Shown piece after piece: positions 909 through 17,002 of a stretch of 33,253 nucleotides of DNA (position 1 is its first letter; every line of letters starts with the position of its first letter). The notes beneath the pieces were generated by a model that saw nothing but the letters and a program-made list of their open reading frames with translations, made no database searches and was not told where the DNA came from. The DNA comes from Tubiluchus corallicola. Taxonomy: Eukaryota > Animalia > Priapulida. The position numbers and the translations under genes are program-made. The stretch spans positions 1-33,253 of the forward strand of contig JAQGDQ010002445.1 of assembly GCA_030141605.1 (NCBI GenBank), in the 5' to 3' direction.

Positions 909-1102
909 TTAAGAAAACATTTAACCAACGAATATAGATTAATTTTTTTCTCTATTGCTTCACTAATTGTAAAATATTTTTTATTTTTACTTGAAAAGCA
1001 GATAAAATAGTCAATACAATAACATAGAATCCAATAAGTGCTTTTTAGTACAGCCATTTTGGCATACAAATGCTTGGATACTTACAATCTCTTAAAATTA
1101 AT

Positions 1103-1591
1103 ATGGTTGCTTTAAAATATTATAATTCAAAAATAAGCATTGCTTTAATGCTTACATTAGGTTCTTGTGCCATCATTGCACTTCTTGTTTGGTTTTTGAT
1201 GGTAGAAAACGAATATAAATGGGTATTGTGTGCAGCATTAGGACTGTTTTCATTAGGGTTTTACACCCTACACTTTAGAAGGCTTTTAGATAATCACCCT
1301 CAAATTGTCATTAACGAAATAGGTGTTTTTTCACGGAGAAAGCACGGATTGGTTGTCTGGGAAAATATCAAAGGAGCATATTACTCAAAGGAGTTTGGGC
1401 AGGGAGCTATATATTTGATAGCGGGGCGAAATAGCCATGAAAGAAAAGAATTAAGATTATCATTGGCCTACATTAAACAAGTGCAAGGAAAGAAGTTAAC
1501 AGAAATTATTTTAAGACTAATAAATGCTGAAAAACACCAGAGAAAAAACATTATTAGTGAATTTTATAATAGCATAATAATATGCAATTGA
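1103..1591 (+). CDS. Hypothetical membrane protein (2 TM helices plus a possible bacterial PH-like domain)
   Basis: Two hydrophobic segments followed by PQIVINEIGV...VVWENI, typical of small TM+bPH proteins. The ORF opens at 1070; ATG 1103 is the more likely start. Confidence 0.6.
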   Translation: MVALKYYNSKISIALMLTLGSCAIIALLVWFLMVENEYKWVLCAALGLFSLGFYTLHFRRLLDNHPQIVINEIGVFSRRKHGLVVWENIKGAYYSKEFGQGAIYLIAGRNSHERKELRLSLAYIKQVQGKKLTEIILRLINAEKHQRKNIISEFYNSIIICN

Positions 1592-1640: not shown

Positions 1641-4346
1641 ATGAGTAATATTAATAGAAAAGAAATAGGACGACGATTAAGAAGACTCCCCAAGGAATAC
1701 ATTGTGCTTTTTTCGTGGCGATGTGCTATGAGAGCACTGCCATTTGTTGCTGCAAAGGGAAATTTTAATTTCTGGGGAGAATCTTCACGGCAACGGCACA
1801 TTTTTTCTCTTTTTAATGCATTAGATGTCGGCGTAGGCGCCGCCGGCGGCGCCTACGCCGCCAGAGCCGCCGCCTACGCCGACGCCTACGACGTCTACGC
1901 CGCCGCCAGAGCCGCCGCCTACGCCGCCGACTACGCTGCCGCCGCCGCCTGCGGCGCCTACGCCGCCAGAGCCACCGCCTACGCCGACGACGACGCCTAC
2001 TACGACGCCACCGCCTACGCCGACCCCTACGCCGCCGCCTACGACGTCTACGCCGGCGCCTCTGGCGGCGACGCCGCCGCCTACGCCGCCTACGCCGCCG
2101 CCGACGCCGCCAGAGCCGCCAGAGCCGCCGCCTACGCCGCCGCCGTCGGCGACGACGTAGGATATGCTATTGATGTAAGCCACTTTGATGAGTTAATTTA
2201 TGGAGAGTGTAGTTTTGTAGAACAAGGTTTTAAAGAGAAAAAAACTGTGCAGGAGCTTTTACAGGAGCCTATTGATGCTACTCCTATGCATGAAGGGGTA
2301 TTTAATATGTTCAAGAAAGCTCTTAAGAAAGAGAATTGCGAGTATTGGTATAATCTCTATTTTAACACCTATACTCGAGGGCTAGATATGGAGGCTTTAG
2401 AGAAACGACTAAATTTACCCCGAGAGTTTTATGATGGAGGAGCAAGCAAAATTGCTCAGCAGTTGTTGCGATATGAAAAAGAGGGCACAAAGAAAATTGG
2501 AGAATTGCGGGTTATTGTTATTGGTCCTGGGGGTTCTGGAAAAACATCATTAGTAAGAAAGCTGCAAGACCCCAAAGCTCCCCTCACAGGAGAAAGCGAC
2601 TCCACTATTGGTGTGGATAAAGAGACATGGTCACCTGACAACACAAAAGATATGCTTATTCACCTTTGGGATTTTGCGGGGCAAGTGGTTACGCATAACC
2701 TTCATAAGTTCTTTTTATCTGAGCGAGCCATCTATCTTGTAGTTTTGGATGCACGGCAAGACGCTGATCCTGATTATTGGTTGGAGCATGTTAAAAGCTT
2801 TGGCGGGAATTCTCCCGCTTTTGTTATTAACAATAAAACAGATATAAGCGGTTACAGTCATTTGGATAACAATAGGTTGAAAAGAGAGTATGGAAATATG
2901 ATTAGAGGGTTTTATGAGATTTCTTGTGAGAAATATTATGGAGTGGAGCGTCTTAAAGAAGAGCTAATAGAGGAAGCGCAAAAATTGATTAAGAACATAG
3001 ACATAGCAGAGTCTACTAAAAAGATACAGAAAGAGATAGAGAAAAAATTGAATGCAGAGAATAAATCATATATTACTAATGAAGAGTATCAGGAAATTTG
3101 TGTGGAAAATGGGATTAAAGATGAACAGGAACAGAAGAATGTGGTTAAAGACTTGCATGACTTAGGCATAGCATTCAGATATAAAAAATTGGAAGATTTT
3201 GGCACTAATATATTAAAGCCTGAATGGGTGACTAATGCTGTTTATGCTATTGTTAGGGGATTAAAAGCACAAAAAACAGATAGATTAGAATTAGGGCAAG
3301 TGAAGAAATTATTAGCAGATAGGAAATATTCTAATAAGAATTTTAAGTATTCGAACAGCGATTGTAGGTTTTTTTATAGATTAATAGAGCTTTTTAAATT
3401 GGGTTACCGATTAAGAAATCAAGAAAGAATACTGCTTCCTCTTTTAATGCCGTCGGATGAACCCGAAGCAGAAAAATTACAAAAATTTTACCATCCAGAT
3501 GCACTTCATGCTCGCTACCGCCTTTCCTTCCTTCCCCCTAATATGCCCTCAGAGCTTATTGTTTCTGTAAGTGATAGAATTTTTTCTGAAGAATTAGTTT
3601 GGCGCAATGGCGTAGTGTTAGAAATTAACAAGGAGAATAAGCCTTCGCAAGTGTTGATTATCGCTGATAGAAATAAAAGAATATTTGATGTTTACACTAA
3701 GGGAGGGGATAAAAGAGAATGCTTTGCTTATATTAAGCAAATGTTTAAATCTGTTTTTGAGAACTATAAAAACTTAGGCAAGAAAGAATTAGAAATAAAA
3801 ATAGATGAGAATGAAAATGGATCTGTTTTTGAAAAAGAAGAAGGGTTAAAAACATATTTAGAAGAAGGGTGGAATACTTATTGTTCAGGAGTAACAGGAA
3901 AAGAGTATAATGTACGTGAATTATTAGGAGATTATTATAAAACAGAACAAGAAATGAAGAAAACTACTACTGAAAAAAACATACATTTTCATGTAAGCCA
4001 AAATCAAAACACTTTTGTTAACCAAACAACGAAGGTAGATATAGAAATAATTGATGCGGCAAAGGCAGTAAAGAGTGCTGCAGAGTTGTTACAAAAGGAG
4101 CTAGAGAACTGCGATGCGAACGAAAGGGACAAGAAACAAGTATTTGATGAGCTGGAAAAAGTAAAGGATGCTGCAACAGAAATAGAAAAAGATGGCAAAA
4201 AGGCTCAAAAAGGGATTGTTTGGTTTAAGAACTTTTATAAAGATTTAAAAGAGCACAAGTCATTAATTCCTCGCTTTATTTTAACCAAGGCGGCATCTGA
4301 ACTAATACCCGTTATTAATAAATTATTATTAAGTACACTTGGGTAG
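1641..4346 (+). CDS. Roco-family protein (Roc GTPase + COR) with an Ala/Tyr-rich N-terminal module and a helical C-terminal tail; no LRRs
   Basis: G1 GPGGSGKTS (2523-2546), G2 STIGVD, G3 LWDFAGQ (~2667), G4 NKTD (~2832), G5 ISC. COR motifs LHDLG, ILKPEWVT (~3219), LFKLGY, LLPLLMP and VWRNGVVL. Confidence 0.9.
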   Translation: MSNINRKEIGRRLRRLPKEYIVLFSWRCAMRALPFVAAKGNFNFWGESSRQRHIFSLFNALDVGVGAAGGAYAARAAAYADAYDVYAAARAAAYAADYAAAAACGAYAARATAYADDDAYYDATAYADPYAAAYDVYAGASGGDAAAYAAYAAADAARAARAAAYAAAVGDDVGYAIDVSHFDELIYGECSFVEQGFKEKKTVQELLQEPIDATPMHEGVFNMFKKALKKENCEYWYNLYFNTYTRGLDMEALEKRLNLPREFYDGGASKIAQQLLRYEKEGTKKIGELRVIVIGPGGSGKTSLVRKLQDPKAPLTGESDSTIGVDKETWSPDNTKDMLIHLWDFAGQVVTHNLHKFFLSERAIYLVVLDARQDADPDYWLEHVKSFGGNSPAFVINNKTDISGYSHLDNNRLKREYGNMIRGFYEISCEKYYGVERLKEELIEEAQKLIKNIDIAESTKKIQKEIEKKLNAENKSYITNEEYQEICVENGIKDEQEQKNVVKDLHDLGIAFRYKKLEDFGTNILKPEWVTNAVYAIVRGLKAQKTDRLELGQVKKLLADRKYSNKNFKYSNSDCRFFYRLIELFKLGYRLRNQERILLPLLMPSDEPEAEKLQKFYHPDALHARYRLSFLPPNMPSELIVSVSDRIFSEELVWRNGVVLEINKENKPSQVLIIADRNKRIFDVYTKGGDKRECFAYIKQMFKSVFENYKNLGKKELEIKIDENENGSVFEKEEGLKTYLEEGWNTYCSGVTGKEYNVRELLGDYYKTEQEMKKTTTEKNIHFHVSQNQNTFVNQTTKVDIEIIDAAKAVKSAAELLQKELENCDANERDKKQVFDELEKVKDAATEIEKDGKKAQKGIVWFKNFYKDLKEHKSLIPRFILTKAASELIPVINKLLLSTLG
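1827..2156 (+). repeat. Imperfect (GCC)n-based trinucleotide mosaic, in frame within the Roco gene
   Basis: 110 codons counted by hand: 56 Ala, 17 Tyr, 13 Asp, 9 Gly, 5 Arg, 5 Val, 5 others; ~79% GC. Recurring blocks GCCGCCAGAGCC (5x) and GCCTACGACGTCTACGCC (2x). Confidence 0.95.
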
Positions 4347-10049: not shown

Positions 10050-13000
10050 ATGAAATATACGAAAAAAGTTTTAAAAATATTTCTAATAACCATCAGTTCA
10101 ATTTTTGCAATTATAATAGCTGCTGCAATCATTATACCTATTGTGTTTAAAGACGAAATACAGGAGCAGGTTCAGACAACGCTTGATGAGTCTGTAAATG
10201 CAAAGGTCTACTTTGATATAGACGACATAAGTATAAGCATGTTTAAGCACTTTCCGCACATTACGTTGTCATTGAAGAATTTTGGAGTTGCCAATCTTGA
10301 ACCATTTGAAGGAGACACCCTCCTTGCAGTTAAAAGTTTTGATGTTACAGTGGATTTGTTTAGCCTTTTTAGGGATGCGATTGTTGTAAATACCATAGAT
10401 TTGAACCAGCCTAACATTAAGGTGTCAGTACTAAAAAATGGTATAGCAAATTATGACATTGCTAAAAGCGACTCTGTGGCAGTGGAGGAGGAAAAAGAAG
10501 CCACGACTGATACTACAGCATCTGATTTTGCTATTAGCATAGAATCATGGTCTATTAGAAATGCTAATATTATTTATGATGATAGGTCTACCAACACTTA
10601 CGCCAAACTTAAGGGACTTACCCACACGGGTAAGGGAGACTTTACGCTGGATATTTTTGACTTGTCCACAAGAACAACCATAGAGGCAATGTTTGTTAAT
10701 TTTGAGGGAACAACATATTTGAATGGACAAACATTTTTTTCAGAATTGGTATTGAACATGAATATGCCTGAGATGAAGTTTGTATTTAAAAACAACCTTT
10801 TAAAGCTGAATGATTTTTCTTTTGCATTTGATGGCTTTTTTACTATGCTTGAAGATGATGGTTTTGATATGGATTTATCATTTTCTTCGCCAAATAATAG
10901 CATCAAACAGCTATACTCGTTAGTCCCAGGTGTATTTACAGAAGGGTTTGACGACATAAAAGCAGCAGGGAATTTAACATTTGGAGGGTATGCAAAAGGA
11001 GTCTATAAAGAAGAAAATTTGCCTCAATTTGAAGTAAAGTTACTTGTAGATAATGGAAAAATACAATATCCAAAATTACCTAAGTCTATTGATAACATTA
11101 GCATAGATTTTTCTGCAAAGAACACTTCGGGGGTATTGGAGAACACTATTGTGCATTTAAAAAATTTTCATGTTGATTTTGGTAGCAGTCCAGTTGATTT
11201 AAGTCTATTTGTTAAAAATTTAGAGCAATTTCCCATAGATGCTAGATTGAAGGCTAAATTAAACCTGGAAGAGTTGATGGAAATATACCCTATGGAAGAG
11301 TTAGAGGTAAAAGGAGAGTTAAGTATGGACATAAAAGCTAATGGAATTTATGACTCTGTTACAAATAAAATACCTAAAATAAATGGCTCAATTTACATGA
11401 AAAATGGGTTTGCTAAAAGCGTAGAGTTTCCAGAACCAATAGAAGATATTACATTAAATGCTACAATAAAGGGAGATGGAAAAATCAGTACAACTGTTTT
11501 TAATATGCCTACATTGACAATGAAAATGGACAAAGAGGAGTTTCGTGTTAAGTTATTGGTGGAAAATTTTGACGACTATACATGGGATATGGGGGTAAAA
11601 GGGAAATTAAATTTAGGAACTATCTCAGAAATATATAAAGTAGAAGGCATGAAGTATAAGGGGATAGCCGCATTTGATTTAGCAACGCAAGGAAGGTTTT
11701 CAGATGTGGAAGCAGAGAGGTATGATAAATTACCTACGAGAGGTAGTGTTGCTTTGAGCAATTTTGTCTTTGAAAGCGAAGATTTACCTGAGCCATTTAA
11801 TATAACGGCGGCACAATTGGTATTTGACCCAACTAAAATAGAGCTTGCCAAGTTCAACTCTTCATTAGGTGAGAGTGATTTTAATTTGTATGGGATAGTA
11901 ACAAATTATATGAACTATATATTTAAGGAGAATGAAGTAATAAAAGGAAAATTAGCCCTGAAATCTAATAATATTAATGTAAACCAGTTTTTATCGGCAG
12001 AAGAAGAAACACTTGCATCAAATGAGAAGGTAGCGGAGCCAGAAACTCCTTCTGATACAACTGCACTTGAAGCAACACAAATTCCTAGCAATATTGACGT
12101 TTTATTTACAACAGATATAAAGAAAATAAATTATGATGATTTATTGCTTACTAATGCAAAGGGCAGTATTAGTGTTAAAAACGGAGTGTTGGATATGAGC
12201 AATTTCTCTTTTGGTGTTATAGGGGGGGAAATTGTAATGACAGGAAAATATGACCCAAGAAATGTGGAAAGTCCCAACTATGTTTATGATTTAAATATGG
12301 ATAAAATGGCCATAGGAAAAGCAGTAGAAACGTTTTCTATTATAAAGCAGTATCTTCCTATCTCTTCAAGTGTTAAGGGAACGTTTTCTATGAAAATGAA
12401 AATAGGTGGAAGCTTAAACAAAAGCATGGAGCCTGTGTTTGAATCCATAAATAGCAATGGAGTGATTAAAATACATGATTTTGAAATGCAAACAAGTGAT
12501 ATGCTGCAACAAATTGGAAAACTTGCTAAAAATCAGTCTTTTGAAGGACCTATTGTGATGAAGGATCAAGATATTAGATATGAAATAGTTAATGGACGAC
12601 TGCACACAAAACCGTTTGATATTAATGTAAAGGGTAATAAAATTAACCTCACAGGAAGTGTTGGAGTAGACCAGTCGTTAGATTACGTTGCAAAGACGGA
12701 AATAAAAACAGGTGCAGCAGGGGAGGCTGCCTCCAATTTGCTTTCTCAGGTGGGAGTATCAGGCGTAAATACATCTACAGTAAAGGTGAATTTTAGAATT
12801 TCAGGCACATATGATGATATAAAGGTGGGGTTAGCTTCTGTTGAAGGAAAGCAAACGGAAGATGACAAGGCGGCTGCTAAAAAAGTGGTAGAAGACAAAG
12901 CCAAAGCAGAAGTAGAAAGGTTGAAAAAAGAGGCAGAAAAAAAGGCAAAAAAGGAAGCTGATAGATTGAAGAAGGAGGCAGAAGAAAAGGCGAAAAAAGA

Positions 13001-13109
13001 AGCTGATAGGTTGAAGAAAGAGGCAGAAGAAAAGGCGAAAAAGGAAGCTGATAGGCTGAAGAAAGAGGCAGAGAAGAAAGCAAAGGATGCTTTCAAGAAA
13101 TTATTTTAG
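10050..13109 (+). CDS. AsmA-like (bridge-type lipid transfer) family protein with a charged C-terminal repeat tail
   Basis: N-terminal TM anchor, AsmA-type N-terminus (NYDIAK), beta-rich body and AsmA-like C-terminus (GSVGVDQSLDY, ISGTYDD). Confidence 0.85.
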   Translation: MKYTKKVLKIFLITISSIFAIIIAAAIIIPIVFKDEIQEQVQTTLDESVNAKVYFDIDDISISMFKHFPHITLSLKNFGVANLEPFEGDTLLAVKSFDVTVDLFSLFRDAIVVNTIDLNQPNIKVSVLKNGIANYDIAKSDSVAVEEEKEATTDTTASDFAISIESWSIRNANIIYDDRSTNTYAKLKGLTHTGKGDFTLDIFDLSTRTTIEAMFVNFEGTTYLNGQTFFSELVLNMNMPEMKFVFKNNLLKLNDFSFAFDGFFTMLEDDGFDMDLSFSSPNNSIKQLYSLVPGVFTEGFDDIKAAGNLTFGGYAKGVYKEENLPQFEVKLLVDNGKIQYPKLPKSIDNISIDFSAKNTSGVLENTIVHLKNFHVDFGSSPVDLSLFVKNLEQFPIDARLKAKLNLEELMEIYPMEELEVKGELSMDIKANGIYDSVTNKIPKINGSIYMKNGFAKSVEFPEPIEDITLNATIKGDGKISTTVFNMPTLTMKMDKEEFRVKLLVENFDDYTWDMGVKGKLNLGTISEIYKVEGMKYKGIAAFDLATQGRFSDVEAERYDKLPTRGSVALSNFVFESEDLPEPFNITAAQLVFDPTKIELAKFNSSLGESDFNLYGIVTNYMNYIFKENEVIKGKLALKSNNINVNQFLSAEEETLASNEKVAEPETPSDTTALEATQIPSNIDVLFTTDIKKINYDDLLLTNAKGSISVKNGVLDMSNFSFGVIGGEIVMTGKYDPRNVESPNYVYDLNMDKMAIGKAVETFSIIKQYLPISSSVKGTFSMKMKIGGSLNKSMEPVFESINSNGVIKIHDFEMQTSDMLQQIGKLAKNQSFEGPIVMKDQDIRYEIVNGRLHTKPFDINVKGNKINLTGSVGVDQSLDYVAKTEIKTGAAGEAASNLLSQVGVSGVNTSTVKVNFRISGTYDDIKVGLASVEGKQTEDDKAAAKKVVEDKAKAEVERLKKEAEKKAKKEADRLKKEAEEKAKKEADRLKKEAEEKAKKEADRLKKEAEKKAKDAFKKLF
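12918..13085 (+). repeat. 45-bp tandem repeat, ~3.7 copies, encoding RLKKEAE(E/K)KAKKEAD
   Basis: Units start at 12918, 12963, 13008 and 13053 (partial) and differ mainly at synonymous sites. Confidence 0.95.
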
Positions 13110-15755: not shown

Positions 15756-17002
15756 CTATACAATAGATAATTCTTTTCCTTGATAGGCACCCTTTTTTAG
15801 CTTATCGCTTATGGATATAAAGGCGTCTATAGTTTTTTCTACATCTTTTTGTGTGTGAACTGCAGTAGGGATCAACCGCAGCATTATAACTCCTTTAGGT
15901 ATAACAGGATAAATTACTCCTGAACAAAAGATGTTGTGATTTTCTCTTATGTCGCGTATCATGCGAGCTGTTTCTATTGGCAACCCATTCATAAACACAG
16001 GAGTTACGGGTGATTCTGTTGTACTTAATGTTGAATCCACTTTGTTTTAACCCTTTTTGTAGGCTTTTAACTATTTCCCACAAATTATCTTTTAACTCTG
16101 GCAGCGTTTGTAACAACTCTAACCTTTTTAATGCTCCTATAACCATTGGTAGCGGAAGAGTTTTTGCGAATATTTGAGACCGCATATCAAACCTCAAATA
16201 TTTGATTATCTCCTTATTGCCCCCTACAAAAGCGCCTATGCCTGCCATAGATTTAGCAAAAGTTGAAAAATACAAGTCAATGTCGTTTTGTACGTTTTGA
16301 AGCTCGCCTACACCAGCACCTGTTGCCCCCATTGTGCCAAAGCCGTGGGCGTCGTCTACGAGTAGTCTGAAATTGTATTTACGCTTTAACTCTGTAATTT
16401 TTTTTATATTTCCGACGTTGCCAGACATGCCAAAAACGCCTTCTGTTATTACTAAAATCCCTCCTTTATTTTCATTGTCTTTAAGGTATTTAGTAGCACG
16501 AATGAGCTGTTTTTCTAAGTTTTCTATGTTGTTATGCGCAAAAACAAATTTTTTACACAATTGCATGCGTAAACCGTCAATAATGCAAGCATGTGATTCT
16601 GCATCGTATATCACTGCATCATGTCGATCAAGCATACTGTCAACAATGGAAACAATTTATGATACCCATAGTTCCATAACGTACACTCTCTTTTTTGATA
16701 AAAGCGGCTAATTTTTCTTCTAACTCTTCGTGATATTTGCTATTGCCTGACATTATTCGCGCCCCCATAGGGTATGCTAATCCCCATTTTTTTGTGGCTT
16801 CGCTATCTGCTTTTTTTACCTCAGGGTGGTTAGCTAAACCTAAATAATTATTTAAACTCCAAGTAAGAACTTCTTTGCCATTAAACATCATTTTTGGCTT
16901 AATATCTCCTGTAAGCTTAGGAAACATGAAATAGCCCTCTAGCACATCTGCATATGCCCCTAACGGAGTTTTTGATACGGAACGTTTACCAAATATATCC
17001 AC
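15756..17002 (-). pseudogene. PLP-dependent alpha-oxoamine synthase, probably cysteate acyltransferase (SulA/CapB, sulfonolipid synthesis); frameshifted
   Basis: Three collinear ORF pieces: GYFMFPKL, WSLNNYLGLANHP, YDAESHACIIDG, EGVFGM, VDDAHGFG, TFAKS (PLP Lys), RSQIFAK, SPVTPV, LRLIPTA.H. Breaks at ~16655-16690 and ~16027. Confidence 0.8.

Follow-up and report, generated by a model that had tools for sequence, protein, structure and literature searches.

Background

Roco proteins pair a Roc GTPase domain with a COR domain, and in the canonical prokaryotic form an N-terminal leucine-rich repeat (LRR) array precedes both. According to a 2019 review, every prokaryotic Roco protein then identified had this LRR-Roc-COR order; the same review records that Roco proteins have been proposed to act as GTP sensors and that their function in prokaryotes is little known (PMC6337361). 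In the C. tepidum protein (CtRoco), the alpha0 helix forms a hinge on which, upon GTP binding, the LRR turns through ~135 degrees (PMC11052575). Here we describe the gene for a Roco protein without LRRs, at whose N-terminus stands an all-helical module with a hypervariable insert. The gene lies on contig JAQGDQ010002445.1 (33,253 nucleotides, the whole of which is referred to below as the window) of assembly GCA_030141605.1, deposited for the priapulid Tubiluchus corallicola; the gene set of the window, including type IX secretion system sorting domain and GldH genes, points to Bacteroidota.

The closest conflict systems are the AP-GTPase+COR proteins of Kaur 2021, a class that is itself a prediction and that the paper presents as counter-invader proteins whose LRRs evolve fast and whose C-terminal domains number at least 24, TIR and effector-associated domains (EADs) among them; EADs are described there as fused to both NTPases and effectors (PMC8195603). 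LRR-less probable family members, which we matched by organism and length, are already contained in the source data, where their N-terminal domain has no name. The window protein and its relatives share with these systems the Roc-COR core, a fast-evolving N-terminal part, paralogues in some genomes and a variable C-terminal position (the window tail matches no family; relatives carry EAD11, in 3/54 homologues, or PNP or NACHT tails). They depart from them in lacking the N-terminal LRRs with which the class was described. By analogy, the window protein may work like these predicted systems, with a putative counter-invader activity. Drawing on architecture, interchange with LRRs, mobility, hypervariability and codon pattern, we favour on balance, with restrained confidence, the view that the module is the variable input domain of a one-gene conflict sensor of AP-GTPase type, with a putative ligand and a putative role in defence.

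Results and discussion

Roc-COR architecture of the protein

An original prediction, made from the letters of the window alone, had claimed a complete Roc domain (G1-G5) and a COR domain behind an N-terminus free of LxxLxL repeats, and each of these claims held. Pfam places Roc at residues 290-401 (E 1e-23) and, directly after it, COR-A at 465-602 (2e-24) and COR-B at 622-763 (2e-15). The motifs are G1 GPGGSGKTS (295-303), T322 of switch I, G3 WDFAGQ (343-348), G4 NKTD (398-401) and S428 at the G5 position, with G295, G300, K301, T302, T322, W343-F345, G347 and N398 invariant in 54/54 family rows. Residues 1-290 contain no LxxLxL or LxxLxLxxN motif and no Pfam LRR match, and their model is all-helical. 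The protein is thus a Roco protein, for which GTP binding, hydrolysis and a monomer-dimer cycle are predicted, but not an LRR-Roco. The best Foldseek matches of the AlphaFold2 (AF2) model are the C. tepidum Roco structures 3dpu and 6hlu (E 7e-27 and 2e-26); the Roc-COR fold is shared at a template modelling (TM) score of 0.81 on the target and 22% identity. With C. tepidum Roco (PDB 3dpu, 6hlu, 8r4b) and LRRK2 the window protein has in common the G motifs and a linker/alpha0 helix preceding Roc; it differs in carrying the helical module for the LRR, no kinase, and an additional C-terminal helical bundle.

The N-terminal 283 residues form an unnamed all-helical domain in which two conserved flanks enclose an insert of Ala, Tyr and Asp (Table 1). 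The motifs singled out by the original prediction were located at residues 24-34 (FSWRCAMRALP), 62-173 (the tract, 112 residues), 206 (LLQEP), 224 (FKKAL) and 234 (EYWYNLY). Since the module-Roc design is common to 53/54 homologues of residues 1-290, and since public contigs run from the left flank into the tract (900-1858) and from the tract into Roc-COR (1957-3834) without a mismatch, the arrangement is neither chance nor an assembly artefact; the contigs come from one sample, possibly the window's own source, and no single contig covers the whole tract.

Table 1. Features of the module-Roco gene, in window coordinates
Feature	Position	Strand	Support
Whole gene (P0001): module-Roc-COR-tail protein, 901 aa	1641..4346	+	AF2 pTM (predicted TM score) 0.73
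Conserved N-flank of module (aa 1-61): three helices, F-[AS]-W-x-C-A-x-R-A-L-P-F motif	1641..1823	+	Alignments; pLDDT (predicted local distance difference test) 74-89 per ten-residue block
Hypervariable Ala/Tyr/Asp insert (aa 62-173): low-confidence predicted helices, local duplications	1824..2159	+	
Conserved C-flank of module (aa 174-283): C-x-Y-W-x-x-L-Y motif	2160..2489	+	Alignments; pLDDT 67-96
Roc (AP-GTPase) domain, G1-G5 (~aa 290-450)	2508..2990	+	Pfam and motifs
COR-A	3033..3446	+	PF16095, E 2e-24
COR-B	3504..3929	+	PF25497, E 2e-15
Asn/Gln/His/Thr-rich linker, low confidence	3975..4031	+	pLDDT < 50 at aa 775-801; similar segment after COR in most relatives
C-terminal helical bundle	4032..4343	+	AF2 model; no family match

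Relation of the module to the LRRs

From P260 on, the final ~25 module residues match the linker/alpha0 helix found behind the LRR in LRR-Roco proteins of the same genomes, the junctions reading RRL.VP.EI..QG...V..YL (module-Roc) and N.L..PP.EI..QG..AI..YF (LRR-Roc). It is supported by these alignments that the module occupies the LRR slot and retains the Roco linker helix. An unrooted tree of Roc-COR was built from 72 rows with the module (subsampled from 137), 26 with LRRs and one other; one fragment was dropped, and 5 rows were relabelled by eye. In this tree, 70/72 module rows fall into one group (support 96), while P0063 and P0138 nest among the LRR-Rocos, so that at least 3 changes between module and LRR are required. 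A single clade of module-bearing Roc-COR was rejected in a 41-row subset (approximately unbiased test, p-AU 1.6e-5); the rows were chosen after the first tree had been seen, and P0138, unlike P0063, is a long branch. Repeated exchange of module and LRR on Roc-COR cores is supported by the tree, which, being unrooted, is compatible with either direction of the first swap. The proposal that the module replaces the LRR as a variable input domain has therefore gained in position, linker helix, exchange and variability, while its role as an input stays putative. Separately, a stand-alone LRR gene was seen directly upstream of one module-Roco gene, on the same strand (L033, 10367-11179, minus strand), and in L011 (9932-14179) and P0077 the module is followed by two tandem Roc-COR units.

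A widespread family outside the named domains

A profile search with the module returned 659 clusters at 50% identity (E<=1e-10), and the 58 module loci span many bacterial phyla as well as archaea. The spread is patchy: the order that includes G001, a Flammeovirgaceae metagenome-assembled genome (MAG), yielded no hit in 300 further genomes (0/300), and broken copies occur at L008, L017, L049 and L051, both of which we count for a conflict protein. A unique and unstructured module, or an N-terminus matching a characterised non-sensor domain, would have spoken against the proposed sensor; the module is neither unique, given its profile clusters, nor unstructured, given the domain model and the helical spacing of Tyr, and Pfam, profile and structure comparisons yielded no named non-sensor domain. 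Nor did we find a published description of it in the literature searched, including the accessible parts of PMC7159879 and PMC3482391. The domain is unnamed and so far undescribed, and the Roco variant built on it is new.

Two families resemble the module in being all-helical and ~200 residues long: DUF416/YjaG (PDB 2q9r, 3f7c), with a similar first helix pair ending R-x-x-P, and Imm5_like (PF21805), where proteins such as P0221 have an Ala-rich helical middle. Profile-profile probabilities reached at most 13% for DUF416 and at most 4% for Imm5_like (the latter from a low-diversity alignment of 9 sequences in hhalign), against at most 1.2% for controls and 93-99.9% for the module's own distant subtypes. 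One Imm5_like protein was matched at E 4e-6, possibly for reasons of composition. From these comparisons homology to either family is not established. A shorter subtype (VAFAARCARRVQPLF...WP; P0211, P0218, P0219, P0223, P0224) has the same Ala/Tyr insert and another C-terminal domain, and the Imm5_like protein P0221 has two such inserts; together they are a possible bridge to Imm5-like proteins.

A hypervariable insert with helical spacing

The window tract consists of 56 Ala, 17 Tyr and 14 Asp among its 112 residues (50%, 15% and 12%). The combination of Ala with Tyr, Asp and Ser in inserts recalls minimalist synthetic antibody codes. Across 147 module-Roc proteins, the length between conserved anchors ranges from 24 to 161 residues (median 81). 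Among pairs whose Roc domains are 86-93% identical, inserts are 23-66% alike and flanks 46-89%, the insert being lower in 11/11 pair rows, some of which share a near-duplicate member. Where Roc is identical, 11/12 pairs are identical throughout and probably represent the same records; the remaining pair differs by a 7-residue tandem duplication, for which an assembly difference is the alternative. The insert thus diverges faster than both flanks and Roc, as the original prediction's variable module would lead one to expect, and the protein has a rapidly evolving N-terminal region like that of the AP-GTPase systems, though not an LRR and with a putative role in recognition. Over 224 distinct inserts, Tyr/Phe autocorrelation peaks at lags 3, 4, 7 and 10 (1.18-1.27 times the shuffled value) and dips at lags 1, 2 and 5 (0.60-0.73 times), and Asp/Asn helical spacing is likewise kept. 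Such aromatic spacing is expected for one face of a helix, suggesting that a helical shape has been retained.

These data bear on two other accounts of the insert. In the first, the flanks would restrain the fused GTPase or TIR domain as an autoinhibitory or immunity-like scaffold, and the insert would be a tolerated, slippage-expanded spacer without specificity. The retention of Tyr/Phe and Asp/Asn spacing, the presence of an insert in 147/147 module-Roc proteins (24 residues even in the shortest) and the lack of significance of the DUF416 and Imm5-like links make this unlikely, if worth keeping in mind. The second makes the insert a bait or tripwire: an invader's protease or modifying enzyme would act on exposed Tyr, Asp, Arg or Ala, release the N-terminal half and so activate Roc-COR or TIR. 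A low-confidence segment of variable length between two halves of one fold is what such a device would look like, the residues of the insert include common protease P1 residues, and release-type activation suits TIR and GTPase fusions equally; yet a packed hairpin accords better than an extended substrate with the helical periodicity and with an Ala content of 36-52%, and we think the bait decidedly improbable.

C-ending codons and repeats in the insert DNA

The GC-rich, C-ending character of the tract and the palindrome that opens it go beyond what the original prediction had observed. The tract has a GC content of 78%, in a window of ~33%. Of its Ala codons, 55/56 are GCC, compared with 1/41 elsewhere in the gene (Fisher p 6e-25); 102/112 of its codons end in C, compared with 79/789 elsewhere. 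The palindrome is perfect over 32 nucleotides (1829-1860), and other reverse-complement words lie inside the tract; among 40 genes surveyed, inverted matches of at least 14 nucleotides occur in just 3 inserts besides this one. In the same 40 genes (inserts of at least 30 codons, proteins of 600-1500 residues), C is in excess inside the insert at four-fold third positions in 39/40 and at two-fold positions in 33. Pooled four-fold sites number 1153/457/126/28 (C/T/A/G) inside and 1940/2248/2083/1577 outside, and the bias has no link to the GC content of host third positions (GC3; rho -0.15, p 0.35). Because purely C-ending inserts within genes of 30% GC3 coexist with others that have drifted toward T, the pattern reads as fresh repeats decaying through transitions. 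More duplicated 5-codon words than in shuffles were present in 24/46 inserts. The plainest account is one of slippage and template switches within GCC-type repeats, though it does not cover the restoration of C.

The variable repeats of diversity-generating retroelements (DGRs) are similar in that first and second codon positions vary while C at the third is nearly fixed. Unlike them, the insert is N-terminal, variable in length and dominated by GCC, and no GCC-framed second copy that might be a DGR template was found in 5 genomes. The sole reverse transcriptase (RT) found in G001, which has a purely C-ending insert, is presumably retron-like; RTs that we take to be DGR-like were seen only in G005, a Bacteroidia MAG (L090, L096, L098), two of them adjoining FGE-type target genes, all these types being judged from motifs. 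As far as seen, the G005 enzymes are unrelated to the insert. By eye, L094 (G003) holds a long RT to which TPR-like and primase-like parts are fused; its neighbour is a CARF-like gene.

Fusions to immunity-type domains

The best 150 profile hits comprise 73 module-Roc proteins, 55 that end right after the module, whether because they stand alone or because the contig breaks off, and 22 with a different tail. Pfam was run on 30 hand-picked non-standard module proteins. Eight carry TIR_2, SEFIR or CAP12-TIR directly after the module; TIR-module-Roc and EAD11-TRADD-N-module orders also occur, as do module-Roc-COR proteins with NACHT or PNP tails and two phosphoesterase-module proteins, one of which runs on into NACHT and pentapeptide repeats. 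Four combine the module with an AAA_21 ATPase and a methyltransferase, DUF4062 and FRG were also seen, and 7 had no Pfam match. The original prediction's further claim, that similar modules are fused to conflict-type domains, is borne out by the TIR, SEFIR, CAP12-TIR, NACHT, EAD11/TRADD-N and phosphoesterase fusions. The module is, as judged from these architectures, mobile and travels with domains of predicted immunity type.

Module-NTPase and module-effector fusions side by side are the pattern described for EADs in PMC8195603, and tandem modules occur as well (three in L057, two in L035). One could therefore see in the module an EAD-like homotypic adaptor, the GTPase copy recruiting an effector-fused copy with the insert as a pairing code. 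A single copy, however, was present in 23/26 genomes, mostly MAGs and possibly incomplete. Extra copies in these and 5 further genomes were, where classifiable, Roco paralogues, tandem copies within a gene or contig-end pieces (L202 was unclassified); copies on an NTPase and on separate effector genes were not found together in one genome, and no second copy recurred in the neighbourhood. Because single copies prevail and the classifiable extras are not separate effector genes, we consider pairing of this kind very improbable.

The tandem copies belong to giant proteins with WD40 propellers, PPDK_N and modules: that of L057 (131-7543; 2471 residues, Bathyarchaeia MAG) lacks Roc and has its modules behind WD40 and PPDK_N, and that of L035 (2038-12171; 3378 residues, Oscillospiraceae MAG) has a Roc-COR besides its modules. 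Their shared architecture and two downstream genes that the loci have in common suggest transfer between archaea and bacteria.

The C-terminal tail

Of 113 post-COR tails, 79 belong to one unnamed helical family, preceded by a segment rich in Asn, Gln, Gly and Thr; the window tail is divergent and groups with P0046 alone. Its bundle sits where effectors or adaptors stand in AP-GTPase systems. The best score in the structure Atlas was 0.77, and a DUF4404 row at 0.76 is a lead only. Between COR-B and the bundle, the segment at 3975-4031 and its counterpart in most relatives are rich in Asn, Gln, Gly, Thr and His and beta-prone; judged by eye, it is like an amyloid-signalling motif ahead of a possibly membrane-acting bundle.

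Genomic context

The gene downstream of the window Roco gene is present in 54/61 genomes of the order of G001, and in 20/20 relatives examined no Roco gene lies within 1.5 kb of this conserved neighbour; the window gene is therefore probably an accessory insertion. It stands alone among housekeeping genes, which would suit a signalling GTPase outside defence, for example a sensor of GTP level or of host contact in symbionts, and Roco proteins have indeed been proposed as GTP sensors (PMC6337361). Patchy spread, broken copies, hypervariability and fusions to TIR, NACHT and EAD fit conflict better, leaving such a non-defence role extremely improbable.

On the same strand, 49 nucleotides upstream of the Roco gene, a gene at 1070-1591 (plus strand) encodes a 173-residue membrane protein weakly similar to the STM3941 family (NF041635, below cut-off at E 1.5e-6). 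We did not see this gene in the 1.5-kb flanks of 20 relative loci; possibly it came in together with the Roco gene. Elsewhere in the window, an aminotransferase class I/II gene (15895-17002, minus strand) is apparently split into open reading frames (ORFs) of 120 and 246 residues, with a frameshift or an error in sequencing as possible causes, and a 45-nucleotide tandem repeat rich in Lys, Glu and Ala codons (12879-13081) lies at the end of an AsmA-family gene.

The module as a candidate variable input domain

In the sensor that we favour, the two conserved flanks would form a scaffold from which the insert projects as a helical hairpin, Ala packing the helices and Tyr, Asp, Arg and Asn making up a variable binding face. 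Once a phage or other foreign ligand bound to the insert, the linker helix would come free and the nucleotide and monomer-dimer cycle of Roc-COR would shift, as it does when the LRR moves in C. tepidum Roco; in turn, the linker and helical bundle at the C-terminus would be uncovered, acting as effector or as effector recruiter. The insert would be continually renewed through slippage and template switches within (GCC)n-type DNA, older inserts decaying from C to T, while selection would preserve its frame and helix.

Several observations weigh against this sensor. The window bundle matches no known effector in Pfam, among shorter proteins or in the structure Atlas, which makes the output step a conjecture. 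The insert is modelled at a pLDDT of 31-51 by block (residues 71-150, full model) or 45-72 (residues 71-180, domain model), which leaves its binding surface putative. No insert allele was seen in the single public sample compared, 22/46 inserts have no excess duplication, and several TIR fusions have an eroded insert (Ala 12-46%), equally compatible with weak constraint. The defence-island enrichment that the original prediction proposed to look for did not appear: without a control set, the 92 immediate neighbours scanned in relatives are mostly housekeeping or unknown genes, with 10 of toxin-antitoxin, nuclease or mobile-element type. No partner recurs among 168 nearby ORFs, and PADLOC gave only weak matches, over the P-loop region (best E 0.005). 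Ligand, phenotype and expression of the module-Roco proteins are all putative.

Conclusions

In its broadest form, which we put forward tentatively and with some doubt, the proposal is that the module is a variable prokaryotic receptor: a conserved helical scaffold displaying a hairpin encoded by a self-renewing (GCC/TAC/GAC)n repeat, with a minimal binding code of Ala, Tyr, Asp, Ser, Asn and Thr that would arise without a retroelement. In bacterial and archaeal hosts alike, such a receptor would serve Roc-COR, TIR, NACHT and further immune outputs interchangeably. For LRRK2, the principal models are bacterial Roco proteins; a natural LRR-free Roco with the same hinge helix lets the share of the N-terminal domain in the GTPase cycle be tested. 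In module-TIR fusions, NAD cleavage offers a direct read-out for finding ligands. If the insert sets specificity, the module would be a new immune sensor domain of bacteria and archaea, diversified by repeat turnover, unlike LRR shuffling or DGRs.
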